DNA from: an uncultured Candidatus Saccharibacteria bacterium
GTDB lineage: Bacteria > Patescibacteriota > Minisyncoccia > Phycocordibacterales > UBA918
Assembly (NCBI GenBank): GCA_964350735.1
Contig: CAYGKO010000003.1
Location: 52,452-116,451 of the forward strand
Length of the DNA: 64,000 nt
Direction: 5' to 3'
Position numbers and translations under genes: made by a program. The notes beneath the pieces were generated by a model. The model ran no database searches, was not told the origin of the DNA, and was given only the letters and a program-made list of their open reading frames with translations. Positions 9,256 through 60,313 of the stretch are shown here, piece by piece (within the stretch, counting starts at the first letter, position 1; the number at the start of each line of letters is the position of its first letter).

Positions 9256-11852
9256 CGGTGATTCTGTCCGCTGTACTTCTGGCTCAGCATCTGTAGTTTT
9301 TTTTTGTAGATCTCATCTTCAGTTGTTACTACACCAGCTACTACAGAAGTACGATTCTTGTAGATGAATACGTATGCTACGAAGAGTGCCCAGAGCGTAA
9401 GAAGTGCGTAGAAGATGAATGTCAGAATTGGACCAGCTTCAAATCCAGTGTATGGCACTTGTGTCAGTGCAATACCAGCCACCCGTGGTTCTTGTGATCG
9501 GTTCTCGAGCACAACCACATCTTCGTCTTCCACTTCAATATTTACTGTACATTCTCGGTCTCGACTACCTCGTTCAACTACTAAAGTGTATTCAGTATCT
9601 TCAGTTGGTCGAACTCGGATACTTCCATCATCTACATCATCATCGTCATCAGTAGAGAAGATTTCTCGATCACCCTTATCTCCTTCGAAGATAGTAAGTT
9701 CTCGTCCTCGACTCGTTTCCCATGAGAGTGTGATTTGTTCACCTGCCTTGATCGTTCGATCAGATGCGGTGAATTCACAACGTGGTCGACTTGATCCTCC
9801 ACCACCTCCACCACCTCGATTTTCTACTGTAATTGTTTCAGTACATGTCACTGGAGTTTCTCCAGCTGCGATAGCAGTAAGTGTGTAGGTGATGTCACCA
9901 ATTGTAGAAGGAGCATTTACAGTGATATCACTATCAGCTGGGAGATTACTTCCGACTCCTTGGTCAATTGACACGCTCTCTGCATTTGTCGTATCCCACC
10001 GGAGGGTGAATGAACCATTTTCAAGTACGGTAGATGGAGTAGCTTGGAAGCTTTCACACACGATGTTGCTACCACTTACTCCTGGCACCACCACGTTAGT
10101 TGGGTCAGTGTCCGTTACTGTCGCACCATCTACAGCTGAATCTCCCGTCACATTTGCCACATTAGTGAATGAAGCTTGTACGTTAGACGTGGCACACGTA
10201 TAGGTATCTGAAGCCCCTTGCGCAAGGCTACCAATTGTCTTGTTACACGCTGCTTCAAGTGGGTCGGTTACTACTACGTTTACCAAATTTTCATTACCAG
10301 TGTTCGTCACTACGATCTCAAAGTTAGCAATGCCACCAGCTGATACTGTCTGTGTATCATCCTTATCAATAGCATCACGCTTGATGATTTCAATTGCTGG
10401 ATTAGTTTGTGTAACAACCGGTGTTACCACAACCGGTGTCGTACATACTGCGTCTGCCTGACCATCTTTACGAGCAGTTAGTGTATAGGTCGTATCGCCA
10501 AGCGCTGGTGTCTCAACAAGCGTAGTTTTATTAGCGTCTGTGCTAATAACCGTAGCTCCTTTAGCAAAGGTAACTGAATCAGCGTTAGTCGTTGTCCAGT
10601 TAAAATTTACCGTTCCTCCTAGAGTAAGTGACTGTGAACCTTTTGGATTCAAATCACAAGTCGGCGCATTAACTGCAACTGCTGTAGTCGTAAGTGTCGC
10701 CGGACACGTAGCAGTCTTTCCAGCCCCATTGTTTACGGTTACGGTGTAGGTTTTGCTGCCAAGATCAGACTGACTTACTGCCTTACTGCCAGCGTTGTTC
10801 GCAACTGTAATCACACCCACACCATTGTTAGCAGAAGCTGATGCAATATTTGATCCACTAACAGTCAGTGTTGATGCCGTATTTACAGTGACTGAACTTG
10901 GAGAGAATGAAGCAGTACAGATTGGATCTGGCACTACTACTGGTGCCGCTGTCGTCGTGAGGGTTGCTGTACAAGACCCAGGCTTACCTTGGTTGTTAAG
11001 TACTGCAATGGTGTAGGTTTTAGTTCCAACTGTTGTCTGGGTTACAGACTTACTACCAGCGTTGTTCGCAATTGTTACCGCTCCAACACTATTATTCACT
11101 GAAGCCGAAGCTAGGTTTGAACCATTGATTTGGAGTGTAGCCGGTGTATTTACCTGAACTGAAGCCGGATTAAATAGCGCCGTACATACTGGATCAGGAT
11201 CTGGTGCTGGTGTAGGTTTTGCATTTACTGTAATTTTCACATTACAAGTCCGCTCCACACCATCAGCGTTTTTCACTGTACCAGTGAATACACGATTTGT
11301 ACCAGTTACGGTCACAGTAGTACTAAGGGGCTGGTTATTTATACCAATCGCTCCCTTACCACGATCCAATTTCGCAGAAACAGCATTGGTTCCCTTAAGC
11401 GTAAACGTAACTTGGTCACCCGCAGTGATAGTCAAGTTAGACTGACCATTCACTTTAAGGACACAAGATGGAATTGGGGCTGATACAACTCCAGGGTCAT
11501 CACGATCAGGCTCTGGGTTAGTCGGAGTACTTGGCTCGTCATCACGACCGCTGCCGCTACCACAACCACCGCAACCATTTCCACCTCCAGAGTTACCAGA
11601 GCCACCATTTGATGTACCCCCGGTACCAAAACCGCCGTCTCCACCAGCACCTTCGCCACCGCCAGAACCAGAACCTCCTCCAGAGCCGCCAGAGCCACCG
11701 TCAGAGTCTCCGCCAGAACCAAAAGCTTCAGCTTGAATTTCTTCGCTTGAGAACTCAAAAAATGATTGTACTTGTGGGAGTGCAATATAAGAAACCACTA
11801 CCGCAACTGCGATTGGGAAAATTAATTTTTTGAATGGAATATTTTTTTTCAT
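9249..11852 (-). CDS. Large secreted surface protein (868 aa) with N-terminal signal/TM, Gly/Ser-rich linker, tandem Ig-like/DUF11-like repeats and a C-terminal VPYTG + hydrophobic + basic sorting-like signal
   Basis: ATG at 11852 (MKKNIPFKKLIFPIAVAVVV). Two near-identical ~90-aa domains (CTATLTTTA...SKTYT). C-terminus ...LTQVPYTGFEAGPILTFIFYALLTLWALFVAYVFIYKNR. Confidence 0.75.
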   Translation of the reverse strand: MKKNIPFKKLIFPIAVAVVVSYIALPQVQSFFEFSSEEIQAEAFGSGGDSDGGSGGSGGGSGSGGGEGAGGDGGFGTGGTSNGGSGNSGGGNGCGGCGSGSGRDDEPSTPTNPEPDRDDPGVVSAPIPSCVLKVNGQSNLTITAGDQVTFTLKGTNAVSAKLDRGKGAIGINNQPLSTTVTVTGTNRVFTGTVKNADGVERTCNVKITVNAKPTPAPDPDPVCTALFNPASVQVNTPATLQINGSNLASASVNNSVGAVTIANNAGSKSVTQTTVGTKTYTIAVLNNQGKPGSCTATLTTTAAPVVVPDPICTASFSPSSVTVNTASTLTVSGSNIASASANNGVGVITVANNAGSKAVSQSDLGSKTYTVTVNNGAGKTATCPATLTTTAVAVNAPTCDLNPKGSQSLTLGGTVNFNWTTTNADSVTFAKGATVISTDANKTTLVETPALGDTTYTLTARKDGQADAVCTTPVVVTPVVTQTNPAIEIIKRDAIDKDDTQTVSAGGIANFEIVVTNTGNENLVNVVVTDPLEAACNKTIGSLAQGASDTYTCATSNVQASFTNVANVTGDSAVDGATVTDTDPTNVVVPGVSGSNIVCESFQATPSTVLENGSFTLRWDTTNAESVSIDQGVGSNLPADSDITVNAPSTIGDITYTLTAIAAGETPVTCTETITVENRGGGGGGGSSRPRCEFTASDRTIKAGEQITLSWETSRGRELTIFEGDKGDREIFSTDDDDDVDDGSIRVRPTEDTEYTLVVERGSRDRECTVNIEVEDEDVVVLENRSQEPRVAGIALTQVPYTGFEAGPILTFIFYALLTLWALFVAYVFIYKNRTSVVAGVVTTEDEIYKKKLQMLSQKYSGQNHRW

Positions 11853-11968
11853 AATAAATTTGATAAGTAAGTAATGTGTTACCTCTGTATATTCCCACCT
11901 ACACCAGTACGCGAGAATATAAAAGGTGAGAAGCCGATCACAAAGTGACCGCCTTCCCAAATCTTGAA

Positions 11969-35373: not shown

Positions 35374-36933
35374 CTAAACCGACATATCCTCACGTTGCTG
35401 GAACAATCTACGCGCCATAATGCCAAGTAACACAAAAAGTGGCAGCAACCAAATAAACCACACGGAGGCAAATACTGCTTCAGTATCCTTAAACACCGTA
35501 ATCTGTCTTACCTCTATCACTCCAGTCAATTTTTTAATACCTTTAGTCTTAAAATCAAACACTTCAAAACTAAAATCATATTCACCAGGTACCAACAAGG
35601 CTCCGATCTCAGCTTCATAGGCCGTCTTGTCAGCATTTACTCGCAATAAAAACGCGAACACTTTTCCGTTTTGTGGATGCACCAGTCGTACTATCACTGT
35701 CTTGAGATGTTCAGGCAAGCGCTCATACGGCACCGATATCAATGTAGTTTGATTATTAGTAATCACCACCCTTTCATCTACAAACACCGCAACATTTCCC
35801 CGTCGGTCACTGAATGATATGTCTGCAATCGATACTACTGTAGTGTTTTCCCCCATCGGTAAACTAATATCTACAGTATCATCAAGTGCCGCATTAGACT
35901 GAGCTTCATCTATTTCGCCTGTGGAGCGTGAAAAATATATTTCAGTCACTGCTCCAGAGGAACTGTTTCCAGCTTCATCATAAGCAAAAATTGTATAAAA
36001 TCTACGCGCACTGTCTGCGGTACGACCGTCAAAAGTTTCTGCGGCATCACCTTCGTACACCAGATAACCTCCTTGTAAATCTGTCGGATAGAACTGATCG
36101 CTACTAAGCACTCTGACTTTCTGAAAATCATCTTCATTAGGATTAGTCCAACTTAATTGCACTCCAGTTTCTGTACCTATGGCTGAAAAGTTCATCGGAT
36201 TTGCCGGAGCCTGGACATCAGGGCGAGACAAAGTTCTAAAACTAACTGTTTCAATTGCAATCTTACCCGAGGAATCTCTCACCTGAATCTGGAGTTCATA
36301 AACAGAATCTGGTGCTAAACCATTAATTAGTACCTGGTGATCTTTCTTAAAGGCAGCACCGGTACTGAATCCTAATTCAAAGTCGACTGTTCTACCCCAA
36401 GCTATCTCAGCTTGAGTCAAACGATTGGTGGAGAACGAAACTGTTGCACTATCTATTTGGGTGTCAATATTTATAGTATCAATACGTACTGCAGCCTGAT
36501 TCACTATACGCCCTCCAAAACTAATCTCGGGAGTTGTGGTCGGTGTGGTAGTAGCAACAACCACTGGTAGTGTCACTGCCGTCGCAGTGGCTGACGTCGT
36601 AGAAAAATTAAAACTTGTGTCAAAAGCCCGGATCGTATAGTCATAGCTAGTACTGGCGGTTAGGCCAGTGTCTGAAAAGTTAACCAGCGAAGTAGTGGCA
36701 ATTTGTATCGTATCTCTAAATACTTGGTAGCCTCCTAATGCAAAGTTATCCGAAGACGCATCCCAGCTGACATCAATTTGGGCACTGGTCACTGGTGTTG
36801 CAAGTACGTTCAATGGTGTGGTTGGCGGTACAATATCGCCCCCAACCAAAGATTGGATCGTAAATTCATCAGTAGCCGCAAAAGCCACCTGCGTAGTAAT
36901 GAAACAAAGGATTACTAGAAGAATCTGTTTCAT
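35374..36933 (-). CDS. Secreted fibronectin-III-domain surface protein with C-terminal TM anchor (519 aa)
   Basis: Signal peptide. FN3-like segment (PTTPLNVLATPVTSAQIDVSWDAS ... YDYTIRAFD). C-terminal TM helix plus RR. Confidence 0.65.
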   Translation of the reverse strand: MKQILLVILCFITTQVAFAATDEFTIQSLVGGDIVPPTTPLNVLATPVTSAQIDVSWDASSDNFALGGYQVFRDTIQIATTSLVNFSDTGLTASTSYDYTIRAFDTSFNFSTTSATATAVTLPVVVATTTPTTTPEISFGGRIVNQAAVRIDTINIDTQIDSATVSFSTNRLTQAEIAWGRTVDFELGFSTGAAFKKDHQVLINGLAPDSVYELQIQVRDSSGKIAIETVSFRTLSRPDVQAPANPMNFSAIGTETGVQLSWTNPNEDDFQKVRVLSSDQFYPTDLQGGYLVYEGDAAETFDGRTADSARRFYTIFAYDEAGNSSSGAVTEIYFSRSTGEIDEAQSNAALDDTVDISLPMGENTTVVSIADISFSDRRGNVAVFVDERVVITNNQTTLISVPYERLPEHLKTVIVRLVHPQNGKVFAFLLRVNADKTAYEAEIGALLVPGEYDFSFEVFDFKTKGIKKLTGVIEVRQITVFKDTEAVFASVWFIWLLPLFVLLGIMARRLFQQREDMSV

Positions 36934-37691
36934 TGTGGCAGTGCCGTTAACGTCGCTGTAGCAGTGTACGTGCCTGGAACAGGGTTTGCGGTTGACCCAA
37001 CTCCAACCCGAAATTTAATTGTAGTAGTAGAACCTAAAGGATGATTAGGATCAGAACGATCAGCAATTACTCTACCGTCACTTTCATTATAGAAACCACT
37101 CCAACAGGCATCACTATCATCTAATGAACCAGTATTGCAAACCAAACCTGCACTATTCTTAAACGTATCAGCAATATCAATTCCTTCTGGTGAGTACCCA
37201 AAAAACGCTTGTCCGGAAGTGAAATCAAAATCATATGACGGTGTGGTACTAGTGGCATAGTCCGCGATAAAGTCACCTCCCGAAACCATAGCTGGTGAGG
37301 TGCTGGCTTTAATAAATAACTCATATCCAGCTGGATCATCGGTAACTACGGTTACTGTTGTAGACCCGTTAGAGACACCTCCAATCACACCGTCGATCAC
37401 CGTACTTAAAACTACATCAGGTGATGCCGAGAGAGAAATAAAAGAATTTTGCATTTGCTGATATCCGGCACGCAACTCATAGGAAGTACTGGTTCCGACT
37501 CCAGTTGCAATCTCTCCTGCCGTTGACTCTTGTCTGAAGTTAGTAGAACTAGAAAATCCGCCTCCAGTATTAATTGAATCGCTTTGAATTTGGTAGTTTG
37601 TACTTGATCGCACTTGTGCGTGCAGAAAAGGAGCTCCCAGCAGCAGTAGCGCACAGATTCCAAGTGTGATGTGTTTTTTAAAGAAGAGCAT
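36930..37691 (-). CDS. Secreted WxL-like small surface protein (253 aa) ending ...GTYTATATLTALPQ
   Basis: Signal peptide and a Ser/Thr/Gly-rich body. The C-terminal motif is shared with the paralog at 38769-39470 and resembles the terminal WxL motif, with W replaced by A. Confidence 0.55.
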   Translation of the reverse strand: MLFFKKHITLGICALLLLGAPFLHAQVRSSTNYQIQSDSINTGGGFSSSTNFRQESTAGEIATGVGTSTSYELRAGYQQMQNSFISLSASPDVVLSTVIDGVIGGVSNGSTTVTVVTDDPAGYELFIKASTSPAMVSGGDFIADYATSTTPSYDFDFTSGQAFFGYSPEGIDIADTFKNSAGLVCNTGSLDDSDACWSGFYNESDGRVIADRSDPNHPLGSTTTIKFRVGVGSTANPVPGTYTATATLTALPQ

Positions 37692-37705
37692 GTATTGAAT
37701 CAGTC

Positions 37706-38749
37706 TTATTTCCGCTTGAACTCAAACGTTCTGAAGAAGCCCCGAATCAAAAAATACAGCAGGAATATACTTAGCAAACCGCCAGCAACAAACGTCCAAG
37801 GGATAACCCAAAAACTCACTACAGCTGTGTCAATAATATTTTCATACCCTCGATTCAGTTGCACCTCTGCCTGGTACCGCCCGAACAACACCTCTCGATC
37901 CCAACTAATTTCACGAAGACGTACTGACCCTGGAAGTACAAACCAGGGCTGTAATTCAACAAAACCAACTTCTTCTCCTAGCAAATTAGTAATACGGATT
38001 TCACCATACGGGTTTAGGTGTACCGAACCTTGATTTTCGTACACTACATCAAAATTAACGGGACCTTGATTAAAAAATGTCTGTTTATTTCTAGTAGAAA
38101 AATCTTGCAATATACCACCCCGTTCGACTGCACCAGGAATTGACACAAAAAACAGAGATCCGATCCGACTCACAATTGCAGAGGACGGTAGTGTCCTCGG
38201 ATCAGAGCCATTATTAGCTTCTTTAGTAACCGTTTTAACCAACACACTTCCATACAACCCACCTGGCTCGGCATCAGGAGGCACGCTAATTGTGACAGGA
38301 ATGATAGCTCGCTTCGCGTGATCTAAGGGAAATTCTAGATCTGGGATTTTAATATAGTCTTTAATAGTGTACGGCCCAGTCTGACTACCAAGCAGCTCCA
38401 CCGATCGCTTTGGGTCATTTGAACTACGAATGTCTTCAATCTCAATGGAAAACGTTTGCTCTTTTCCAATTCTATTAGCTACACTGATCTCAACTGTTTT
38501 TGATTCACCTGGAGCGATTTCAAGCTCAACCTTACCTGGGCTCATTACGAAATCACCCACCACATCGTCGAACGGTAATGATTCGAGTCGATAGGCTGGC
38601 TGTTGCTCAGTTACTACTTCAGATTCAGGCGCTTCAATTGAACTACTTGCAGATGTAAAATCTTCTTGAGCCAGAGATGTCTCAGAGAAAATGAATAAAA
38701 TTACACTAACACTAAAAAATAGAGAACTGGGGTGGCGTATAACAGACAT
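37706..38749 (-). CDS. DUF916/DUF3324-like cell-surface protein with C-terminal TM anchor (347 aa)
   Basis: Signal peptide. PG(E/Q).K..V.V.N pattern typical of DUF916. Single C-terminal TM plus basic tail. Size and topology match CscA-type proteins. Confidence 0.5.
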   Translation of the reverse strand: MSVIRHPSSLFFSVSVILFIFSETSLAQEDFTSASSSIEAPESEVVTEQQPAYRLESLPFDDVVGDFVMSPGKVELEIAPGESKTVEISVANRIGKEQTFSIEIEDIRSSNDPKRSVELLGSQTGPYTIKDYIKIPDLEFPLDHAKRAIIPVTISVPPDAEPGGLYGSVLVKTVTKEANNGSDPRTLPSSAIVSRIGSLFFVSIPGAVERGGILQDFSTRNKQTFFNQGPVNFDVVYENQGSVHLNPYGEIRITNLLGEEVGFVELQPWFVLPGSVRLREISWDREVLFGRYQAEVQLNRGYENIIDTAVVSFWVIPWTFVAGGLLSIFLLYFLIRGFFRTFEFKRK

Positions 38750-38768
38750 ATTGTCTATTCAGTGTAGA

Positions 38769-39470
38769 TTAGTTATCTAATGCGGTCAACGTAGCTGTGG
38801 CGACATATGTTCCATTTGGTACGGCTGGATTTGGATTTGATGGAATTGTAATTCTAAACTGCACTGTAGAAGTTGATCCCGACCCAGGTGTTGGTGCTGA
38901 GGTATTAATTAGTTCAGTGACAGTAGTTGACGATGTGGTTGATGCCCCACGCCAGCAGTTGTTCACCGTGAATGAACCATTGTTTGAGGTCCCGCAGGCT
39001 GCACCTGTGTTAGTAAATACATCTGAAACATCCGCCGTAGCAGAAGCATTAACAGAGAAACCAAATTGTGCTCCGACTGATGAAGTATCGAACCCAGACG
39101 GATACGCGGCAGTACCAGTTGAATATACGTAGTTCGGAATAAGCCCTCCGCCACTATTTCGTCCCATCGCTGTAGTACTACTAAAATTAATCGTCATGTT
39201 GTAACCAGTAGCATTATTGGTTCGGACTCTTGTAGTAGTAGTACCGTACGAAGTGCCCCCAGTGAGACCGTCTAGAGTCCCAACCATGGCCACATCATTA
39301 GCGAGTGTTTGAAAAGAAATCGCTCCACTGATCACCTGAGTCACTGTGAAATCATCAGTGATAGCCCGACTAACCGTTGGTTCCAGCAACAGAAATGAGA
39401 ACGCAAGAAACAGACCAACGGCAAGCGTTTTGAAGGTTGCTTCTACAAAAGAGCGAGTTAGAGATTTCAT
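38769..39470 (-). CDS. Secreted WxL-like small surface protein (233 aa) ending ...GTYVATATLTALDN
   Basis: Paralog of 36930-37691, sharing the C-terminal P.P.GTY.ATATLTAL motif. Confidence 0.55.
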   Translation of the reverse strand: MKSLTRSFVEATFKTLAVGLFLAFSFLLLEPTVSRAITDDFTVTQVISGAISFQTLANDVAMVGTLDGLTGGTSYGTTTTRVRTNNATGYNMTINFSSTTAMGRNSGGGLIPNYVYSTGTAAYPSGFDTSSVGAQFGFSVNASATADVSDVFTNTGAACGTSNNGSFTVNNCWRGASTTSSTTVTELINTSAPTPGSGSTSTVQFRITIPSNPNPAVPNGTYVATATLTALDN

Positions 39471-39710: not shown

Positions 39711-42700
39711 CTAAATTGAACCTCCTCCTCCGCCCCCACCGCCAGTCGCTTGGTGATACACCCGTACCTGAATCTCATCGATCCGGATTTCGTTGCTTGA
39801 TGGTGCACCAGTAACCCGGATAGCAAAGTTGGTGTTGTTAAGCTCAGTCGGTGTCCAGGCGCGACCCCAGAGATCAGCCGGTGCACCGAGCGTAACCACC
39901 GTATCGCTCGTAGTGAGAGTCGGACTAGTCTTAGCAGCAGTCCAGCTGGTACCGCCATCGTACGAGAGTTCCACATCGATCGTCCCGGCGTCCGTAGTAC
40001 CAGACACCTCGAGCTTCACCGCAATTCCCACAATCTCATTACTGCCCGGGATACTGTGGCTGTAGTTGGTGTAGTTGTGAGTGTCGGCGGCACTGGTGGT
40101 GGCGTAGGTGCCGTCAGTCTGATCGTAGGCATTAGCAGCGCTGTTCCAGCTGCCACTATTGGCACTTGGGCGGTTGAAGCCAACTTCTGCACCAATGGTA
40201 CTACCACCAGTATTGGTATCAACTGCACTCCCACCTCCACTACCCCCTCCAACTTCTTCACTCCGACCGGCTGGAGCGTCGCCGCCAATCGATCCTTGAG
40301 AACTACCACCTCCACCACCACTCCCCTGATTACCTCTAATATGTTGCACTGAATTTACTGAACCATTTACATTGATTACTTCTTCAAATACTACCCCAAT
40401 ACCTTGCACACCACTCGTGGCTAGACTCAACACTAGCATTTCAGATCGTGAGACTGCATTAATATCAAACGTCACTAAATAATTTTGGTTTGTAGTGACT
40501 AGGAAATCATCGGCAAACACAATTGTACCCGACTCGCCACTGAAGGTGAACTCACCACTAGCATCGAGTACCTGGTCGGTTACATCATACTCAGCATCAT
40601 TATCTGTATCCTGGTACAAAACAATATTTGGGATACTGCTGGTTGAGACACTATTGCTGATACCTGACACATTGAGCGTTAGCGCTGTAACGGTTGCGCT
40701 CTCACCAGTTGGAGTAAGCTGAAATGCAAAGGCTGGTTGACTCGTTGCATTCTTAAAACTAAACGCACTACTTACCTGACCTACAGAATGATTAGCAATT
40801 GTAATCACACCTGGCTCTGCCAGCGCATAGAAGTCAGTAGTGGTTGATTGGTTGAGATATTCAGCGGCGATCCAGGCTGGAGCGCGTATAGAATTAGAAA
40901 TTCGTACCTCATCTAATGAGCCGTCTAGATTTCCACCCGCGCTGCGTTCTGCCCCCAATCGTACTGGTCGATCAGTCTCGAAATCTGGTTTTGAATTGAC
41001 AGCATCATTAGAATCAAATAAAGACCCATCAATATACTCATCAACATCATTGGCGCTTGTATCAAATTGCAATGTTACGTGCTTCCAGCCTGCGCCAGCA
41101 ATAGTAGACCAGCCGTTAGTAATAAAATTACCAGTTCCAGAAGTGTGAAAAATGGCCGTGTTATTTGTGGTGCCTCGACGTTGAAACGACCAGTCATTCC
41201 CAGCTCCATTTCCCTTGGAATAAAGCGCAGCAAAACTATTTTGTGAAGCATCCATATCAACCCACAGACTAACTGCGTAATCAGAAGCAGAGAAATCAAA
41301 TTCGCTAGTGCTCGGTATTTCAATGTAATCAGAAGCACCATCGAGATCTTGGGCCAAGCCGAGTCGTCCAGCTACATCACTCCCACTCGTCATCGATGTA
41401 CCAGTTCCGTGGTTTCCAAAACTTGTAGAATCTCTGTATCCACCGGCATCTGTATTTCCATCTTCGCCTAAGTGATACACCGCTACATACCCGTTACTCC
41501 ACACATTCTCCGCTCCATACGTAGCACTCGTAATGTAATCAATCGAACTAGAGCCGTTGTAGTAAATCCTAAAATGAGTATCCATAGTAGAAGAAATAAG
41601 ATTGGCCTTGAAGTGCAGCTCGCCTGTCTGAAGGGTCGTCGAGGCCGATACTAATTCGCGCGGTAACTCAACTGGTGAGCCGCTATTTGTGGTCACCCGA
41701 ATGTCACCAGCGTCACTCGATACTCCAGCCCAGAAATCTGCACTCAAGTCTGACAGATCAATATATACCGGGAAATCAGCTAGATCTTCATCAATATTGG
41801 TGTAGTCGATGGTGACAACATCGTATTCAGTCCAGTCAGTATCATTCCAAGGAACCGGCGCTGCTCCCGCCTCAAGGGTCCAGTTAGTGTTGTTTCCTGA
41901 GTCAACTGACTGATAGGCAGTGACCCCTCCGGCAGTGATTGTTGCGTCACTATCTCGCACATCAACAAATGACACCGATACTTGTATACCCGTATCAAGA
42001 TCCCAAGCAGTGCCTGGATCTGAAGAGCGGAGATACACTGGGCGACCATCTTCACCGGTCCAGTCCACACTATCAAAGCTATAAGTTTCTCCAGCTAGAA
42101 ACTGCACCGATGAGGAGGCCTCAATCGTAAAGAGGCCATCAGTTTCAGCTGGTGCCCCGAAAATGAATGATTGGGTTGTGCTACCTGAGGCTGAGTCATT
42201 ACGTACCGTCAGTGCATTAAAGGCATCGGTACCTGACAGCGAACCAGTAGCTGTCTGCGTACCAGATCCAGCGAAGATTACTTCTCCACCACTCCCATAT
42301 ACGCCATTATTCGTGTAATCACCGAGCACAGTCAGTTCGCCTGTCCCACTGAGTGAGCCAGTTGCATCAATCACCATGTCAGCAGTGGTAGCATTGGTAA
42401 AGGTGTAACTACCGGCAATCACCACTGTATTACCCGCAATAGCATCTGTCAGAGCGCCGGTAATTTGCTCTCCTGAGCCAGTGAGCGTGGTTGTACCACT
42501 CCCGGCAATCACTGCCCCACTGCTATCAAACGATCCAGCGATTGAAAGCTCATTTGGAAGAGCTGCTGTCCCTCTAGATTCGATGACAAAGTTGGTTGTA
42601 CTAGCGTTATCAGCAAACAATATTGTACCGACCGCCGAGATGTCATTGAATGCTGAAGATCCTGTAAGAACTCCTGAGGCAGACAGATCGTCTAAATCAT

Positions 42701-45700
42701 ATTCATTAACATCATCTCCGCTGAATCCAACAACAAACAACTTTGTACCGTTAGCATTAAATGCCATACCCGTCGGAGATGTCTCTTCTGCAGCAATACT
42801 GTAACTAGTAACGAAACTAGCGGTTGAGATTGAGAACGCCGTACTCAGGACATACTCATTGATATCATTACCAATATTCCCTAATACAAACATCTTCTCT
42901 CCTGTCTTATTAAAGAGTAGCGCTAAAGGGGTTGTATCTTGAGAAGAAACACTGAACTCAGCCACGTGACTGGCTGTAGACACATCAAATACAGTACTAA
43001 GAGAATACTCATTCACCTCATCGGGCGTTGATCCGAGAACATACATCTTTGTACCGTCAGTGTTAAACGTTACATCAGTCGGAGTGGAGTTATCTGCCAC
43101 CACACTAGTAGCATGAGAGAATGAGGCTGATGAAATATCAAAAGCGGTACCTAGTGCATACTCGTTAATATCATTACCTGCGTCGCCAGGAACATACATC
43201 TTTGTACCGTCAGTGTTAAATGCTACATTGAGTGGACTCGTGTCTTGGAGCGCCACACTCGTCGCATGAGTGAACACTGCAGTAGAAACATCGAAGCCAC
43301 TACTAAGCGCATACTCGTTAATATCATTACCACTGTCTCCAGCTACAAACATCTTGGTACCGTCGGTGTTGAATTCAACTCCTCTCGGCGTGAGGTCTTC
43401 AGTAGCAACCCTAAACGACCCGTCAAAATAAGCAGTAGAGATATCAAAAGCACTATCAAGGAAATAGCGATAGACATTGTCGCCAGTCGAACCAATGACG
43501 AACATTTGTGTGCCGTCATTGTTAAACCGCATATCGTTTGGAGTTGCCTCTTCAAGTGCGACACTAAAGCCATCTACAAACGTACGAGTTGATGCATCAA
43601 ACGCTCCACTGAGCGTATACTCACTAATATCATTACCGGTATCACCTACAATAAACATCTTGCTGCCGTCGGTATTAAACTCAATTCCAGTTGGAGTAAA
43701 ATCTTGCGCATTCACAAGCGTCGCATCAACAAACGCCGCTGAAGACACGTCCCACGGTGAACCCAAGGTATATTCGTTCACGTCATCACCACTACTCCCG
43801 ACTACAAACATCTTGGTGCCGTCAGTATTAAAACTCAAACCTTCCGGTGTAAGCTCTTGAAGTGACACACTCGTAGCGTGAGTATAGGCAGCGCTCGACA
43901 CATCAAATGCCGACGTCAGTTCATACTGAAACACCGAATCATTGGTGGTTCCTAGAACAAACATCCTCGTACCCGTTGCGCTGAACGTTACTGCCGTTGG
44001 AGAAGTCTCTTGAGACGCAATCCTAAAGCTATCAACAAAACGGGCGGTCGAAAGGTCGTATGGCTCTATTAATGCATACTCATTAACATCATCTCCAGAA
44101 GACCCAATCACAAATAATTTTGTACCGTCAGTATTGAAAGCCAACCCTTCTGGGCTTGCTTCTTCGGAACTAACAGAAAACACATCATTATAACTGAGAG
44201 TGGATACTTCATAGGCCTCACCGGCAAAATACACCGTTCCAGAATTGTTTTCGAATACCCCGTTATTGGTGAGCGACCCGGCAATTGTTAGGCTAGTAGC
44301 TGGAGCAGTGGTCGTAGCCCCAGCTTCAATTGTAATATTCGTAGTTGACGCTGCTTGTCCAAAGGAGACTGAACTACTAGCAATTATGCGCACATCTGCC
44401 AGACTGGACGCTCCCGTAAAATCCCCAGAGATACTCGCTGGAGTCGTGCTACTAAAACGCACCAATCCTTCATTGGCATTAAAGGAACCGTTGTTTGTTA
44501 GATCGCCAGTGACCGTTAACACAACCGGTGCCGTCGTACTCCCAGCGGCTGCAATGGTTATATTTTCTACTTCTGCTTCACTACTGAAAGTATAGGCCCC
44601 AACAACAAAGGTATTACCCAGTTGGTTATCTCCAGTCAAACTGCCAGAAACCGTCTTATCTGTCCCCGTCAAGTACAAACTCTGTCCAGCGGTAAAAGAT
44701 CCATTATTGGTAAAACCTCCACTCGTTTCAAAGTTGCTGGTAGATGCAATTGAGACCGACACTCCAGCGTCGATTGTAAAGTCGGTCGTTGACGCATTAT
44801 CAGCAAATAGCACATTTCCAAATGACGCCGTTGTTGTGGCTAAAGCTGAAGTGCCAGACAAGGTACCACTAAGCGTACTGGTCGAAATAACGGCCTCAAA
44901 CGTGAACGAAGACGCTAGATCAAAGCCACTGAAGGTATCGCTAAAACTACCGCTCACAAACATAGAGAAGCCGTCCGGACTCATGTCTATTCCTGATGGC
45001 AAGGTTTCAATATCAGACAAATCATATTGGCGACCATCGTATGATGCGGTTGATACATCAAACCCCGCCGACAGTGTGTATTCAAATACTGAATCAGTTT
45101 GGTCACCTAAAATAAACATCTTGGTTCCGGCGGTGTTAAAAACAATTCCCGACGGTTGCGTGTCTTCACTCGATACATCAAAACTATCTACAAACGAGGC
45201 GGTCGACACATCCCATGCCGGACTGAGTGTGTATTCATTTACATCCATTCCAGCCGTCCCGACTACAAACATTTTGTCGCCTGTAGCGCTAAGTGCCATA
45301 GCTGCCGGTGACGTCTCTTGTGAACCAATCGGCTCAGTATCTACCTGAGTAGCGCTCGAAATATCCCACGGGATACTAAGTGAAAATTCATTAATGTCAT
45401 TCCCTGTATCTCCCAGTATGTACATTCGACTACCGGTAGCATTGAACTGCACATCTTTCGGCGCAGTATCGAAGCTTTTAATAGAAAACCCTTTCTCATA
45501 CTCAGCAGTTGTAAGATCGTACGGTGTACTGACATCAAATTGCCCCACCATGCCAGAAAGTCGATACACACTGTACAATTTTGTTCCATCGTCATTAAAG
45601 GTGACCGCCTCCGGTACTGAATCAGTTTTTACCAACGAGTCTGTCGACACATTAGCAGCTCCCCCAAAAGAGAAAACTGGATCAAGTGCATATTCATAAA

Positions 45701-48700
45701 TTCCCCCCGTGGAAGGATCGGTCACATATGCCTTACTGCCACTGGCATTAAAGGTAATGTCGTAGAGATCTGTCACTTCAGTAAATGAGAGCGTGATGCT
45801 TGTGCCAATTGAACCAGGATCATAGGCTGAGCTGAGATCGTACACTGTAAGCGTGTTGCCGGTGTAATCACCGACAAACATTTTAGTACCATCGTCGTTA
45901 AATTTAATAGTTAACGTGTCTACAAAGATTGAGTGCGAAGCGTCAAAAGAGGCCCCTGATAGAGCGTACTTTGGGGAGAGGCCATATTCATAGATAGCAC
46001 CAGATCCGTTTGCTTGGTACAGTATCGATCCATCATCATTGAATTCAAGTCCAAATCCGCCGCCTGCAAAAGAGTCGGTAGCACTAGCGGTCGATACATC
46101 CCAGTCCGTACTGAGCTCGTACTCATATACATCCCCAGTTCCAGAGTCACTGATAAACATTTTGCTTCCAGTCGCATTAAATACGATAGCAACTGGTGAT
46201 ATTCCCTCAGTACTTACATCGAAACTGTCGGTGTAGCTTAAAGTGGAGAGGTCATAGTCAACACTAAGCGCATATTCATCTACATCATCCTCATTATCAT
46301 CAACTACATACGCCTTACTTCCATCATTATTGAAGCGAATCGCAAATGGCGTCGCACTATCACTTGGATAGGTGGTATCCTGAAATAATACTCCCCCAAA
46401 ACTATACGGCGCATCAAGAGAATACTCAAAATATCCTGCGAAAGCAGCGGTTAGGAACAACCGATCTCCATCACCATCAAAATCCACTCCTGTAATCGTA
46501 TTAGCACCCAAATCTCCTGAGGTATTGAGTGTACCTCCAAATACTGCCGTGGAAACATCAAAGGCAGTGCCCAGATCATACTGATAGACTTCCCCATTTG
46601 AATCCCCGCCGTCAGTAACAAACATCTCATCACCGGTCGGACTGAATGTTAGTGCATACGGACTGTCGGTTTCAGTACTCACACTGAACGCATCAACATA
46701 ACTGAGGGAGGTAATGTCCCACGCTGATAACGTAAATTCACTGACATCATCGGCGCTTTCGTCACCAACAAACAACTTAGTGCCCGCACTATTAAATGAG
46801 AAACTAATCGCGGTAGTTACTTGTGAGAAAATATGAGTATCAGTGGCACTCGCCGTTGAAACATCAAAGGCCGTACTGAGATCATAGGCATAGAGCGTAT
46901 TATTTCCACCGCCCAAAACAAACATCTGGGTACCTGAAGTATTAAACTTCACTCCAAAGGCAAAGCCGTCTTCTCCGCTCACATCATACCGGGAAGCCAG
47001 ACCAGCGGTGGACAAATCGTACGCAGTAGACAAATTATACATTTCGATCACATCATTAGTGACGTCAGTGAATGCTACCTTGGTCCCTGAGTCCACAATG
47101 GACATTCCCCAGAAGCTAGAGTTAGCCGCTGAAGTAGTCACTGCATTTTTGAAAGACACCGACTGTCCAGACTGAATGTCCAGCGTCGACTCTGTACTGT
47201 CATAGGTCCCGTCGTTTGTCAGACTCCCCGCCAATGTAAGCGTAGCTGGAGCTTCAAAGGTTGCTCCGCTTGGAATTGTAATTGACCCCGGCAGTGTTGC
47301 ACCAGAAATTGTAGTAATCGCAGTACCTCCATTAAGGGTACTACCTGGCCACACGTACAGCTCTTTTCCACCCTGAACCGTAAGTGTCTCAGCTGCCGCT
47401 GACGCTAGATACATGATGTCGCCATCATCTGATGCATCGTATACGGCGAAGTCTGCAATAGTAGTCGAAGAAATACCGGCTTCATGACGCGAAATAACGT
47501 GATCTTGATATAGATCAAGCGTTGTGATATCGGTCGAAGAAGAATTAGCAACAGTTACCAGCGATCCTTGAATACTACTATCACCATCCACCCAAACCAC
47601 CACGCCTGATCCGTCATCTATGGTATGACCTTGCGTAATCGCCACCTCCCACAGACCGGTAGTCTGAGCTGATGAACCGGTATAGACCTGGACTGGATTA
47701 CCAGCCGCTACTTTAATTACCGAACTAGTTGCAACAACCGTACTTCTATCAGCTTGGTACAGCGTACCTGAAAAAGTAATCGGAGCAGCTTGTGCAGTGT
47801 TGTAGAAGTCGGTGGTAGTAGCTTGATTGAGATGTTCAGCTGAAATCCAAGCAGCTGAACGTTCAACGGTACTAACCCGAAATTCGTCTATTGAACCTTC
47901 GTGATAGTTAGCACCCGCGTCTCCTCCTAAATAAAAACCAGTCAGGTCAACATTAGGATTGTCAGTCGAGATACTACTTGTTGCACTCACACCATCAAGA
48001 TAAATGCCTTTGCCTGTCCCTGAGGTCACGTGCACCATTGTCCATTTATCATCATAGGCTGTGTAACTAGTAGATATACGACCTGGTGTAGTACAGCAGG
48101 TACCAAAATCCCAATAAACAATATCCGCCCAGGGCGCTGATATCACAAGACGTTCATTCCCACCACCAACTGCCCAACCTGCCGCAATGTGAAAAGTCTC
48201 AGCCGCAGCTGCAGCTGCAACGTTATTCCAAAATTGTACAGTGACAGTATTATTGCTGTTGCTCCAGACATTATCTGTATCGGTTAATAGCTCATCATTA
48301 CCGTCGAACTGAATCGCCTGACCGCCTGCTAGGCGTCCAGTGACTGAGTCCCCTGACACAAACGATCCAATAGTAGCTAGGTCGTAATCATTACTCGTTG
48401 AGTCATACACCGTGGCTCCAGAAGGATCTTCTTGCAAATGGTAGACACTATAGTAGCTGTTCGTCCAGACATTCTCCGCTCCGTAGGTATCGTCGGTTGC
48501 GTACGCTGCCGTAGTTGAGCTGTTGTAGTAGATTCGAAACACCGTATCAGTCGTCGAAGAAATACTATTTGCCTTGAAGTGCAACTCTCCAGTTTCTAAG
48601 GTGGTAGAAGCAGACACCACTTCACGCGCCAACTCGACTGGTGAACCATCGTTCGTAGTCACGCGAATATCTCCCCCTCCATCACTGACCGTACTCCAGA

Positions 48701-48953
48701 AGGTTGACGAAAGATCAGCCAGGTTGATATAGACCGGGAAGTCTGCCAGGTCGTCGTCGATATTGGCAGCATCGATAGTGACAGTGTCGTACAAGGTCCA
48801 GCTGGTACCATTCCAAGTTGATGTAGCGGCTTCTGCAGACTGAGGCGTGAAGAATGTAAGCAGAGCGAGCGCTCCCAACAACACCAACAAACCACTCAGT
48901 TTAGTCTGCATTGTACTTATATATGTACGTGGTTTTGATTGATGTGTGTTCAT
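39711..48953 (-). CDS. Giant secreted protein (3080 aa): two DUF2341/LamG-like modules, dozens of ~45-aa beta-propeller-like repeats, Gly-rich C-terminus
   Basis: Signal peptide. DUF2341-like modules at the N-terminus and again mid-protein (ADFPVYI(N/D)L ... GDIRVTT ... GELHFKAN). Repeats of the form SP.G..FN.DGTKMFV.G..GDDVNEY.L..A(F/Y)D(V/L)STA. Confidence 0.8.
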   Translation of the reverse strand: MNTHQSKPRTYISTMQTKLSGLLVLLGALALLTFFTPQSAEAATSTWNGTSWTLYDTVTIDAANIDDDLADFPVYINLADLSSTFWSTVSDGGGDIRVTTNDGSPVELAREVVSASTTLETGELHFKANSISSTTDTVFRIYYNSSTTAAYATDDTYGAENVWTNSYYSVYHLQEDPSGATVYDSTSNDYDLATIGSFVSGDSVTGRLAGGQAIQFDGNDELLTDTDNVWSNSNNTVTVQFWNNVAAAAAAETFHIAAGWAVGGGNERLVISAPWADIVYWDFGTCCTTPGRISTSYTAYDDKWTMVHVTSGTGKGIYLDGVSATSSISTDNPNVDLTGFYLGGDAGANYHEGSIDEFRVSTVERSAAWISAEHLNQATTTDFYNTAQAAPITFSGTLYQADRSTVVATSSVIKVAAGNPVQVYTGSSAQTTGLWEVAITQGHTIDDGSGVVVWVDGDSSIQGSLVTVANSSSTDITTLDLYQDHVISRHEAGISSTTIADFAVYDASDDGDIMYLASAAAETLTVQGGKELYVWPGSTLNGGTAITTISGATLPGSITIPSGATFEAPATLTLAGSLTNDGTYDSTESTLDIQSGQSVSFKNAVTTSAANSSFWGMSIVDSGTKVAFTDVTNDVIEMYNLSTAYDLSTAGLASRYDVSGEDGFAFGVKFNTSGTQMFVLGGGNNTLYAYDLSTAFDVSTASATDTHIFSQVTTAISFSFNSAGTKLFVGDESADDVSEFTLSAWDITSLSYVDAFSVSTETDSPYALTFSPTGDEMFVTDGGDSNGEVYQYDLGTAFDVSTAVFGGTLNTSGDLGANTITGVDFDGDGDRLFLTAAFAGYFEYSLDAPYSFGGVLFQDTTYPSDSATPFAIRFNNDGSKAYVVDDNEDDVDEYALSVDYDLSTLSYTDSFDVSTEGISPVAIVFNATGSKMFISDSGTGDVYEYELSTDWDVSTASATDSFAGGGFGLEFNDDGSILYQANGSGAIYEYGLSPKYALSGASFDASHSIFVDTLTIKFNDDGTKMFVGDYTGNTLTVYDLSSAYDPGSIGTSITLSFTEVTDLYDITFNASGSKAYVTDPSTGGIYEYALDPVFSFGGAANVSTDSLVKTDSVPEAVTFNDDGTKLYSVYRLSGMVGQFDVSTPYDLTTAEYEKGFSIKSFDTAPKDVQFNATGSRMYILGDTGNDINEFSLSIPWDISSATQVDTEPIGSQETSPAAMALSATGDKMFVVGTAGMDVNEYTLSPAWDVSTASFVDSFDVSSEDTQPSGIVFNTAGTKMFILGDQTDSVFEYTLSAGFDVSTASYDGRQYDLSDIETLPSGIDMSPDGFSMFVSGSFSDTFSGFDLASSFTFEAVISTSTLSGTLSGTSALATTTASFGNVLFADNASTTDFTIDAGVSVSIASTSNFETSGGFTNNGSFTAGQSLYLTGTDKTVSGSLTGDNQLGNTFVVGAYTFSSEAEVENITIAAAGSTTAPVVLTVTGDLTNNGSFNANEGLVRFSSTTPASISGDFTGASSLADVRIIASSSVSFGQAASTTNITIEAGATTTAPATSLTIAGSLTNNGVFENNSGTVYFAGEAYEVSTLSYNDVFSVSSEEASPEGLAFNTDGTKLFVIGSSGDDVNEYALIEPYDLSTARFVDSFRIASQETSPTAVTFSATGTRMFVLGTTNDSVFQYELTSAFDVSSAAYTHATSVSLQELTPEGLSFNTDGTKMFVVGSSGDDVNEYTLGSPWDVSSAAFVDATLVNAQDFTPTGIEFNTDGSKMFIVGDTGNDISEYTLSGAFDASTRTFVDGFSVALEEATPNDMRFNNDGTQMFVIGSTGDNVYRYFLDSAFDISTAYFDGSFRVATEDLTPRGVEFNTDGTKMFVAGDSGNDINEYALSSGFDVSTAVFTHATSVALQDTSPLNVAFNTDGTKMYVPGDAGNDINEYALGTAFDISSASFSHATSVVADNSTPTDVTFNTDGTKMYVLGSTPDEVNEYSLSTVFDVSTASHVAEFSVSSQDTTPLALLFNKTGEKMFVLGNIGNDINEYVLSTAFSISTASFVTSYSIAAEETSPTGMAFNANGTKLFVVGFSGDDVNEYDLDDLSASGVLTGSSAFNDISAVGTILFADNASTTNFVIESRGTAALPNELSIAGSFDSSGAVIAGSGTTTLTGSGEQITGALTDAIAGNTVVIAGSYTFTNATTADMVIDATGSLSGTGELTVLGDYTNNGVYGSGGEVIFAGSGTQTATGSLSGTDAFNALTVRNDSASGSTTQSFIFGAPAETDGLFTIEASSSVQFLAGETYSFDSVDWTGEDGRPVYLRSSDPGTAWDLDTGIQVSVSFVDVRDSDATITAGGVTAYQSVDSGNNTNWTLEAGAAPVPWNDTDWTEYDVVTIDYTNIDEDLADFPVYIDLSDLSADFWAGVSSDAGDIRVTTNSGSPVELPRELVSASTTLQTGELHFKANLISSTMDTHFRIYYNGSSSIDYITSATYGAENVWSNGYVAVYHLGEDGNTDAGGYRDSTSFGNHGTGTSMTSGSDVAGRLGLAQDLDGASDYIEIPSTSEFDFSASDYAVSLWVDMDASQNSFAALYSKGNGAGNDWSFQRRGTTNNTAIFHTSGTGNFITNGWSTIAGAGWKHVTLQFDTSANDVDEYIDGSLFDSNDAVNSKPDFETDRPVRLGAERSAGGNLDGSLDEVRISNSIRAPAWIAAEYLNQSTTTDFYALAEPGVITIANHSVGQVSSAFSFKNATSQPAFAFQLTPTGESATVTALTLNVSGISNSVSTSSIPNIVLYQDTDNDAEYDVTDQVLDASGEFTFSGESGTIVFADDFLVTTNQNYLVTFDINAVSRSEMLVLSLATSGVQGIGVVFEEVINVNGSVNSVQHIRGNQGSGGGGGSSQGSIGGDAPAGRSEEVGGGSGGGSAVDTNTGGSTIGAEVGFNRPSANSGSWNSAANAYDQTDGTYATTSAADTHNYTNYSHSIPGSNEIVGIAVKLEVSGTTDAGTIDVELSYDGGTSWTAAKTSPTLTTSDTVVTLGAPADLWGRAWTPTELNNTNFAIRVTGAPSSNEIRIDEIQVRVYHQATGGGGGGGGSI

Positions 48954-48961
48954 ATTGATTT

Positions 48962-59167
<10,206 letters not shown>

Positions 59168-59913: not shown

Positions 59914-60313
59914 ACGATATTGCTATATATTATATAGCGATTCTCTTTAAAATAGTGCGTCGGTTGTGGACTACTTTTATACAAAAAAAACTACAATTTA
60001 TCCTGCTAAATTTAGAGCAGGTTTCAGACAAAAAGCTCCGGAGGAAAAAGGTAGCTGACTACCAAAAGATAACTTATAACAACCCATCAGGAGAACAGAG
60101 ACGCAAGCAAATCCTGGTTCTTAGTCCGATGCAAAACACAAACACAGCTCGTGAAAGGATTCGGTCGCAACTTAACTGCATGTTTCTAGTCAATTAGACA
60201 ATATCTAAGGAGAAATTGGAGATAAGGAGTCAGCGGTAATACAGACTGTAACACGTTTCCAGAATACTGCACATAACGGAATTATATGTAAAACTCTTTT
60301 ATACGATATAACC

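Follow-up and report, generated by a model that had tools for sequence, protein, structure and literature searches.

A phage-like fibre protein with a phi29 gp12-type chaperone and a giant multi-lectin protein beside a predicted Pam-like pilus operon in a patescibacterial chromosome

A large part of all bacterial diversity falls within the Patescibacteria. To our knowledge every cultivated member lives attached to other microbes, and apart from type IV pili and the Pam pili described recently we know of little that explains host recognition and attachment in this group. The Pam pilus of the Candidate Phyla Radiation (CPR) consists of donor-strand pilins, chaperones of the PapD/FimC kind that are anchored by a transmembrane (TM) segment, and PamR, an anchor that joins fibronectin type III (FnIII) domains to a TM segment; it is found mainly in Saccharimonadia and Microgenomatia, and a protein called 'tail fibre-like', not analysed there, lies consistently beside the pam operons (10.64898/2026.03.03.709456). 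The MATs of Bdellovibrio are surface-displayed trimeric fibres that combine a conserved N-domain with a mosaic shaft and whose end is formed by an S74 chaperone or by an adhesive tip (PMC10769870). In phage phi29 the D4 domain of gp12, which comprises two beta-tulips, serves as an autochaperone in trimerisation, and its discoverers noted kin in 'some bacterial adhesion proteins' (10.1101/216911). Giant patescibacterial proteins with DUF2341 and/or FhaB domains, assumed to be adhesins, were reported in the Patescibacterium danicum paper (PMC11809585), and large proteins with adhesion domains in Absconditicoccaceae (PMC13059738). Here we describe two adjacent giant genes, P1 and P2, in a stretch of 64,000 nucleotides (nt) from an uncultured Candidatus Saccharibacteria bacterium (positions 52,452 to 116,451 of contig CAYGKO010000003.1, assembly GCA_964350735.1; hereafter the window). 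All parts of the two proteins belong to known kinds and the locus is not a new system; the pam neighbourhood of the fibre gene (10.64898/2026.03.03.709456) and giant DUF2341 proteins of Patescibacteria (PMC11809585) had already been reported. The main new points are a chaperone of the phi29 gp12 type (Peptidase_G2, hereafter G2) at the C-terminus of P2, a probably MAT-type domain at its N-terminus, and the place of both genes in a conserved, mosaic locus that adjoins a Pam-like operon.

Both genes lie on the minus strand, and their open reading frames (ORFs) and lengths are those given by the sequence-only reading: P2 (48962..59167, stop codon included) encodes a secreted fibre protein of 3,401 residues, which matches two PHROG tail-fibre families (E 3e-14 and 4e-14), and P1 (39711..48953, stop codon included) a secreted multi-domain protein of 3,080 residues. 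The P2 stop codon is separated from the P1 start by 8 nt, and the end of an upstream ORF for 247 residues from the ATG of P2 by 2 nt, so that P1, P2 and the 247-residue gene are very probably co-transcribed. A Sec-type signal peptide can be read at the start of each protein, with the predicted cut in P1 after …TPQSAEA and before A, and in P2 after …SVSVSA and before AP. In composition both abound in S, T, G, A and D and contain hardly any Cys or Lys.

The C-terminal domain of P2 (residues 2963 to about 3102; 49862..50281) is an intramolecular chaperone of the phi29 gp12 type. The top match in the PDB to the profile of the P2 C-terminal family is the cleaved C-terminal fragment of gp12, 3GQH, and the alignment begins at residue 1 of that fragment, to which D2963 of P2 corresponds (DFAEYFES in gp12, DLAEQYFSS in P2). 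In 19 aligned relatives the D, L, A, E, Y, F and S of this motif are invariant, and S, D, L, A and E around the junction are invariant or conserved at 90% or more; P2 has the D-x-x-E after the Ser-Asp junction, with its acidic residue at +3, that characterises Peptidase_G2. An AlphaFold model built with the family alignment is poorly defined before D2963, and its confident part starts exactly at this residue, the next 140 residues having a predicted local distance difference test score (pLDDT) of 91-97 and the beta-tulip fold of the gp12 fragment. The isolated C-terminal region of P2 matches the Pfam model PF11962 weakly (12.4 bits, cut-off 25; E 0.1), while the model matches 7 of 38 close homologues at E<=0.01 (best E 9.5e-8) and is already annotated on the homologues P0017, P0044 and P0053. 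The domain is 38-40% identical to virion proteins of jumbo phages, and metagenomic homologues of the region, from CPR sources, are 44-58% identical. At E<=1e-30 the profile collects 1,053 cluster representatives among 1.84 billion, a number that grows to 9,756 at E<=1e-10, although the weakest of these matches may be inflated by the low-complexity tail; lengths within the family reach 5,766 residues, and in the longest of the matches listed the chaperone domain is the C-terminal end.

Self-cleavage is predicted between S2962 and D2963 (N-S/D-L-A-E; 50279..50284) because the alignment to the gp12 fragment, the boundary in the model and the invariant motif coincide there, and it would release a fragment of 439 residues that takes in a helical part and an acidic tail. 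In gp12 itself, Xiang and colleagues reportedly found in 2009 that an Asp and a Glu are catalytic in autocleavage. The stalk directly before the predicted cut (residues 2730-2962; 50282..50980) could be aligned in the same 19-sequence family alignment and is widely conserved. We searched the genomes of Bacteria and Archaea, one per species, with the P2 C-terminal profile and obtained 80 loci, in which the presence of modules and neighbours was scored by tblastn and conservation by chunk-wise searches; the stalk is found in 48-79 of the 80 at 51-70% identity. The tail after the chaperone domain is rich in D and E (11-46%) and poor in K and R (mostly 1-2%) in 47 loci. In P2 its last part (residues 3273-3401; 48965..49351) is rich in E, P and T and carries an (EP)n run, as the sequence-only reading had seen; it lies within the fragment that is predicted to be shed. 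The run is encoded by a near-perfect hexanucleotide tract (GAACCA/CTGGTT, 48970-49069), whose copy number likely varies by slippage, and nowhere else in the two genes is the assembled length open to doubt.

P2 thus resembles phi29 gp12 (PF11962, 3GQH) in that the domain starts at an Asp after a Ser, D-x-x-E aligns residue for residue, and the chaperone terminates a protein that is long, beta-helical and phage-fibre-like. It differs in being cellular, exported by Sec, about four times longer and provided with a presumed MAT-type anchor at its N-terminus; in the helical region and the acidic tail of about 130 residues that follow the tulips; in its sub-threshold Pfam score; and in that folding would take place outside the cytoplasm, without ATP-dependent release. 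The segment YSTANSDLAEQYFS (residues 2958-2971) had earlier been read as faintly recalling the Ser-Asp start of Peptidase_S74, but as lacking the spacing of the catalytic Lys. PF13884 matches neither the whole of P2 (E<=0.1) nor its C-terminal 451 residues (E<=10), and P2 has S-D-L-A-E-Q, without Lys at +5, against the S74 catalytic motif SDxxxK (PMC10769870); S74 was therefore rejected in favour of G2. The S74 chaperones of phage K1F, T5 pb1 and MyRF are C-terminal trimerisation domains that cut themselves at Ser-Asp, as is predicted for the P2 domain, but their chaperone fold is helical, whereas that of P2 is a beta-tulip.

At its other end, P2 begins with a signal peptide (residues 1-28; 59084..59167) made of a basic n-region, a hydrophobic core and an A-x-A site, followed by a MAT_N-like domain (residues 29-135; 58763..59083), which is the conserved end of the protein and its presumed cell-proximal anchor, present in 26 loci at 52-66% identity. 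P2 matches the NCBIfam model NF053851 (Bdello_MAT_N) with 18-21 bits (E 2.7e-4 to 1.7e-3), where the cut-off is 60 bits, and all 16 orthologous N-domains match it as well, the best with E 5.3e-9 and all under the curated cut-off. The P2 N-domain is likely a remote relative of MAT_N, and since the scores are far under the cut-off P2 is not a member of the Bdellovibrio MAT subfamily. The MATs described by Caulton et al. in 2024 (PMC10769870) resemble P2 in having a signal peptide followed by a beta-rich N-domain of about 110-130 residues, a long fibre with V-G-x-x-x-x-P-type loops, and mosaic modules, and many of them end in a self-cleaving chaperone; it has been proposed that their conserved end keeps the fibre attached to the cell, and P2 has such a conserved N-terminal end. 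In contrast to P2 and its G2-type chaperone, MATs use S74 (SDxxxK) or adhesive tips that are not chaperones, and they are proteins of about 600-1,000 residues with 21 paralogues in a diderm predator, whereas P2, single within the window, has 3,401 residues and belongs to a CPR bacterium.

Between these two ends extends a mosaic shaft (residues 136-2962; 50282..58762), recognised by its motif count, internal duplications, patchy conservation and similarity to cyanophage proteins. The many NGNVGIGT-type repeats noticed in the sequence-only reading are real: the loose pattern [VIFL][GS][IFL]G[TSDEN] occurs 21 times in P2, compared with 1.9 times on average and never more than 6 times in 500 shuffled sequences, and about 17 of the 21 are of the type G-N-V-G-I-G-T-x-x-P(-x-x-x-L). 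This is near the capping-loop consensus of the MATs, V-G-G/N-pi-x-x-P-x-x-x-L (PMC10769870), and one residue longer between G and P. Duplicated modules of the shaft are at most 83% identical at the amino acid level. An LVIVD beta-propeller, present in only some orthologues, is inserted at about residues 2000-2330 (52178..53170; PF08309 with 71.3 bits against a cut-off of 20.2, in three stretches around residues 2177-2213), and the insert also matches TIGR04312 (choice-of-anchor B) weakly. Annotated cyanophage tail fibres align to residues of about 1012-1490 with 25-27% identity (E down to 9e-10), and a phmmer search of the whole of P2 against the PDB gave one weak match, the Bdellovibrio MAT structure 8ojn_C (E 0.023, residues 2567-2619). 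The PHROG, cyanophage and jumbo-phage matches support by homology the tail-fibre-like reading of P2, and they agree, together with the phage-type chaperone, with the link to phages that had been suspected from the sequence. Residues 1801-1900 (53465-53764) and 2501-2700 (51065-51664) have no detectable relative in the 80 loci, which makes them candidates for lineage-specific determinants of specificity.

P1 contains two copies of a module in which a DUF2341-like part (ADFPVYI...GDIRVTT...GELHFKAN) is followed by a LamG domain, at residues 43-400 (47754..48827) and 2362-2720 (40794..41870); the two are 44% identical over 383 residues, and 67-74% in the DUF2341-like part. Laminin_G_3 (PF13385) is found in the whole protein with 84.6 bits, against a Pfam cut-off of 27.6, in two stretches, of which the one in module 2 covers residues 2538-2696 (E 1e-23) and the other supports module 1; scanned alone, module 1 has no match in Pfam. 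The duplication and the LamG assignment of the sequence-only reading are thereby upheld, while its DUF2341 assignment finds no direct counterpart in Pfam, since PF10102 matches neither the whole of P1 nor the isolated modules even at E<=10. It is only through homologues carrying PF10102 that the modules can be called DUF2341-like. Most of the 73 homologues of P1 residues 2356-2706 carry PF13385 and about 20 carry both PF10102 and PF13385, among them P0085, which is 34% identical to module 2 at 98% coverage; one homologue bears the name 'DUF2341 domain-containing protein' and another has been placed in COG5306. They are mostly stand-alone proteins of about 370 residues, one being fused to MotA/ExbB.

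Two arrays of YVTN-type blades lie between the modules, and here the sequence-only count of about 40 blades of about 45 residues has to be revised: a hidden Markov model (HMM) of the repeat finds 25 blades with a period of 51 residues, 15 in the first array (residues 597-1350; 44904..47165) and 10 in the second (residues 1582-2091; 42681..44210), where the period is exactly 51 residues or 153 nt and DNA repeats at that spacing are 60-74% identical. The rest of the interval is beta-helix-like linker, which follows each array and is itself duplicated. A profile of 20 P1 blades matches in the PDB six blades of the Methanosarcina surface-layer (S-layer) YVTN propeller 1L0Q (1l0q_A, E 8.7e-17) and also hydrazine synthase beta (E 5e-7); below threshold, the blades match the curated models SGL (1.3e-9), Beta-prop_EML and NF052340, hydrazine synthase beta (about 1e-8), and phmmer with the whole of P1 found no match in the PDB. 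The M. mazei propeller 1L0Q and the P1 blades are alike in their core motif ('sPxGiAxxpDGtkvYV' vs 'tPtgiaFNtDGtKmFV'), but the P1 blades have 51 residues rather than about 42, number 25 (15 + 10), lie between LamG modules and are bacterial.

P1 ends in a conserved jelly-roll domain resembling a carbohydrate-binding module (CBM; residues 2925-3070; 39744..40181), which is modelled as a complete jelly roll and not as a truncated immunoglobulin (Ig) fold, and then in poly-Gly (TGGGGGGGGSI-COOH, residues 3071-3080; 39714..39743), as had been seen from the translation. The run comprises 8-10 Gly, and in 16 of the 19 complete P1 orthologues, as in 11 of 13 database homologues, it leads straight into the last one or two residues of the chain, the final one being I or L; two further orthologues have an extension of about 30 residues behind the run, and a run of at least four G is present in 18 of 20 orthologues. 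The P1 C-terminus has neither a TM segment nor an LPXTG motif, and the poly-Gly end may be an unrecognised sorting or docking signal. The giant proteins described earlier (PMC11809585, PMC13059738) resemble P1 in being very large, secreted, encoded in CPR genomes and equipped with DUF2341 or concanavalin-A-like domains, and they share with it the lack of full-length homologues, the reshuffling of domains and an adhesion role assigned by inference. P1 differs in lacking an FhaB domain and in its fixed position beside a fibre gene; specific to it is also its combination of parts, in which two DUF2341-LamG modules and 25 YVTN blades are joined to a CBM-like domain that has a poly-Gly end.

Each of the 80 related loci comes from Patescibacteria, which supports the sequence-only reading with respect to the organism; most are labelled as Paceibacteria/Parcubacteria (Nomura-, Kaiser-, Giovannoni-, Taylor-, Vogel- and Komeilibacteria), and many carry the generic label 'uncultured Saccharibacteria'. 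Since protein homologues in the databases reach at most about 630 residues and are mostly truncated by contig ends, full-length relatives were taken from these loci and from a search of a representative library. In about 20 genomes the genes recur in the order gatB, two genes for proteins with a helix-turn-helix (HTH) domain and a TM segment (296 and 247 residues), the fibre gene, in some of them a giant gene, the pilus genes and gap. The pilus genes likewise follow a fixed order, namely a 233-residue secreted protein, a 347-residue protein with a C-terminal TM segment, a 253-residue secreted protein and a 519-residue protein with FnIII domains and a C-terminal TM segment. Within this frame the two giant genes vary greatly. 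Complete fibre ORFs range from 1,337 to 3,714 residues, and the gene ending in the P1-type C-terminal domain from 1,117 to 3,223 residues, a comparison of length and copy among related genomes that the sequence-only reading had proposed; at five loci (L016, L029, L030, L037 and L038) a P1-like gene is absent. The fibre ORF is split at L003, L021, L054 and L074, which may reflect frameshifts or sequencing errors.

Conservation is concentrated at particular ends of both proteins: the widely conserved parts of P2 are residues 1-200 (26 loci) and 2701-3100 (48-79 loci), and that of P1 is its last 180 residues (15-19 loci). In the closest locus (L074, 2058-21080), the last 560 residues of P2 are 74-93% identical and the N-domain 52-60%, the middle is not collinear, and P1 aligns in alternating blocks of 85-92% and 50-62% identity, while the flanking HTH-TM genes are 30-36% identical. 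The high identity of these blocks beside such divergent flanking genes suggests, with the flanking HTH-TM genes as the only yardstick, that modules may have been exchanged laterally between distant lineages. Apart from the hexanucleotide tract, identity between the internal DNA repeats of P1 and P2 is 60-82%, and it is 81% for the longest (300 nt). Since it does not exceed 82%, and since many independent assemblies contain intact ORFs of comparable size, the assembler is unlikely to have collapsed repeats.

Directly downstream of P1, and on the same strand, lie four genes (35374..39470) that we read as a Pam-like pilus operon, whose predicted gene architecture resembles that of the CPR Pam systems; the reading draws on NF058579, WxLIP and fn3 matches and on synteny in 15-24 loci. 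The 253-residue protein and two of its orthologues match NF058579 (PamT) with E 9e-12 to 5e-13 and 45-49 bits, the equivalog cut-off being 240, and the 233-residue pilin-like protein is its paralogue, both being secreted. The chaperone-like 347-residue protein (37706-38749, minus strand) carries a signal peptide and, besides a WxLIP-like Ig domain, a TM segment at its C-terminus; its family matches Pfam WxLIP_PGBD and the PDB structures of Enterococcus EfmWxLIP1 (9i25/9i1y) with E 5e-6, and FimA faintly. The 519-residue protein combines fn3 domains with a C-terminal TM segment and is in this respect PamR-like. The matches of the 347-residue family hint at a relationship between the Pam operons of the CPR and the Firmicutes loci for the WxL/Csc cell-surface complex. 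P2 shares with the tail fibre-like protein of Troman et al. (10.64898/2026.03.03.709456) its position as a neighbour of pam-type genes, and the likeness drawn here to the protein of M. amalyticus is one of neighbourhood; the relatives of P2 are mostly Paceibacteria/Parcubacteria, and those of the Pam-like operon are mostly labelled Paceibacteria.

The two genes upstream of P2 (59170..61204, minus strand; synteny in 22-24 loci) encode paralogous proteins of 247 and 296 residues, each with an N-terminal HTH domain of the excisionase/HTH_17 kind (weak matches to HTH_17 and TIGR01764) and a single TM segment. A membrane-tethered DNA-binding domain is an odd neighbour for surface-protein genes. The two genes are separated by an unusually long non-coding gap of 400 nt (59914-60313), which has no Rfam match and no convincing promoter signal. 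An Rfam scan of the whole window gave a tRNA as its sole match, and promoter and terminator scans of the flanks gave no more sites than shuffled sequences. Further out, the window carries gatB, obg, gap, rpiB, gyrB, dnaE, pheT, a release factor and a tRNA, and as these flanks are housekeeping genes we take the P1/P2 region to be core chromosome and not prophage. Elsewhere in the window lies the gene of another probable surface protein (9249-11960, minus strand), which is 903 residues long, has DUF7507/DUF11 repeat domains and shows no sequence relationship to P1 or P2.

Taking these observations together, we consider it reasonably probable (about 0.6) that P1 and P2 are the variable centre of a surface-appendage locus which is conserved in the chromosomes of Paceibacteria-like Patescibacteria and in which a fibre, a giant protein and a Pam-like pilus mediate attachment and recognition; a role of P1 and P2 in attachment is plausible from their domain types and from the adjoining Pam-like operon. 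We infer that P2 is a trimer, is cleaved, is anchored to the cell and binds through its shaft. It would be exported by Sec, after which the tandem beta-tulips of its G2-type chaperone would nucleate trimerisation of the long beta-helical shaft and then cut themselves off through the invariant Asp and Glu of the S/D-L-A-E motif, shedding the C-terminal fragment. The mature fibre, of about 2,930 residues, would stay on the cell by its MAT-type N-terminal domain and expose exchangeable shaft modules, such as the LVIVD propeller and the unique segments, as binding surfaces. P1 would be a co-transcribed giant composed of modules of the glycan-binding type. Its C-terminal domain, the only one conserved among species, most likely docks it to its own cell for that reason, and the remainder could contact the surface of a partner or host. 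P1, P2 and the Pam-like pilus most likely act together in attachment to, and recognition of, host cells or surfaces. Several points weigh against this account. The scores of P2 itself for Peptidase_G2 (12.4 bits) and MAT_N (about 20 bits) lie below the curated cut-offs, and an hhalign comparison of the P1 C-terminal and P2 N-terminal domains with the PamT-like protein found no similarity. Release of the gp12 chaperone, according to the same 2009 work of Xiang and colleagues, is reported to be ATP-dependent, and such a step could not operate on P2, which would fold outside the cytoplasm. The part of P2 just before the cleavage site is conserved among species, unlike the variable distal tips of MATs, so that the binding determinants would have to lie elsewhere in the shaft. 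Finally, YVTN propellers with beta-helix segments are typical of archaeal S-layer proteins too.

This last point leads to the suggestion that P1, and perhaps P2, are structural components of the bacterium's own envelope or S-layer rather than binders of a host. The best solved relative of the P1 blades is indeed an S-layer propeller, P1 has beta-helix-like linkers, the locus holds a fixed place in the core genome of many species, and the 347-residue neighbour resembles a peptidoglycan-binding WxLIP domain. Yet P1 is unlike an essential lattice protein, because it is absent from several syntenic loci and elsewhere varies threefold in length; its module content is mosaic, and the lectin-type LamG and CBM-like modules, like the phage-fibre architecture, point to ligand recognition. 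We regard a structural role as unlikely. We also think it improbable that P1 and/or P2 are cargo of the Pam-like pilus, mounted at its tip or base by donor-strand complementation in the manner of chaperone-usher tip adhesins. Such a role would suit the position of both genes, adjoining and co-oriented with those for a PamT-like pilin, its pilin-like paralogue, a TM chaperone-like protein and an FnIII-TM anchor, as well as the report that a tail fibre-like gene is consistently found next to pam operons (10.64898/2026.03.03.709456) and the proposal that DUF2341 proteins are adhesins at the tips of archaeal type IV pili (PMC4858521), and the conserved beta-sandwich at the P1 C-terminus could serve as the acceptor domain. 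That sandwich, however, is modelled as a complete jelly roll instead of a truncated Ig fold, and neither it nor the P2 N-domain resembles the pilin-like protein by hhalign; a trimeric fibre is ill-suited to a single-file donor-strand polymer, and Pam-like operons occur without a P1-like gene.

The phi29 protein gp12 digests teichoic acid, and P2 might in the same way be an enzyme, a tailspike-like depolymerase that digests a polymer of the host surface instead of a passive adhesin. It has the same type of chaperone as gp12, the mature part of which serves in recognition and digestion of the host cell wall (10.1101/216911), and a long sequence of the beta-helix type. A search of P2 with Pfam, NCBIfam, PHROGs and PDB sequences nevertheless found no family of the hydrolase, lyase or pectate-lyase type, its detectable inserts being propeller and fibre modules, and we judge an enzymatic role to be very improbable. 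Even less credible is the thought, prompted by the phage-type domains and the many internal repeats, that the genes are a prophage remnant or an artefact of collapsed repeats. Both proteins carry Sec signals, there are no other phage genes nearby among the housekeeping flanks (gatB, obg, gap, rpiB, gyrB, dnaE, pheT), the locus recurs between gatB and gap in about 20 independent genomes, the internal DNA repeats are just 60-82% identical, and intact orthologous ORFs of 1.3-3.7 thousand residues are found in independent assemblies; on these grounds the prophage and artefact readings were rejected as largely refuted.

Returning to a surface-appendage locus that mediates attachment, the data also allow a bolder extension, which we offer as tentative and consider doubtful. 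One modular host-recognition organelle of Paceibacteria might be made up of the Pam-like pilus together with the fibre and the giant lectin/propeller protein. In it, specificity modules would be swapped between distant lineages like the host-range cassettes of phages, a version of the G2 chaperone that works without ATP would mature the fibre outside the cell, and the invariant poly-Gly-(x)-Ile/Leu end of the giant protein would be a new signal for cell-surface sorting or docking. The swapping of modules is proposed on the basis of the blocks of P1 and P2 that are 85-93% identical to the closest locus beside flanking genes of 30-36% identity.

For the biology of these organisms, the locus provides candidates for attachment in the poorly studied Paceibacteria, namely a phage-like fibre, a giant multi-lectin protein, conserved 'handle' domains and exchangeable middles. 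Cellular giant proteins that employ the G2 chaperone of the phi29 type form a very large family, with more than 1,000 clusters at E<=1e-30. If the modules set the host range, then comparing them across genomes could predict host specificity, as is the case for the tail fibres of phages.

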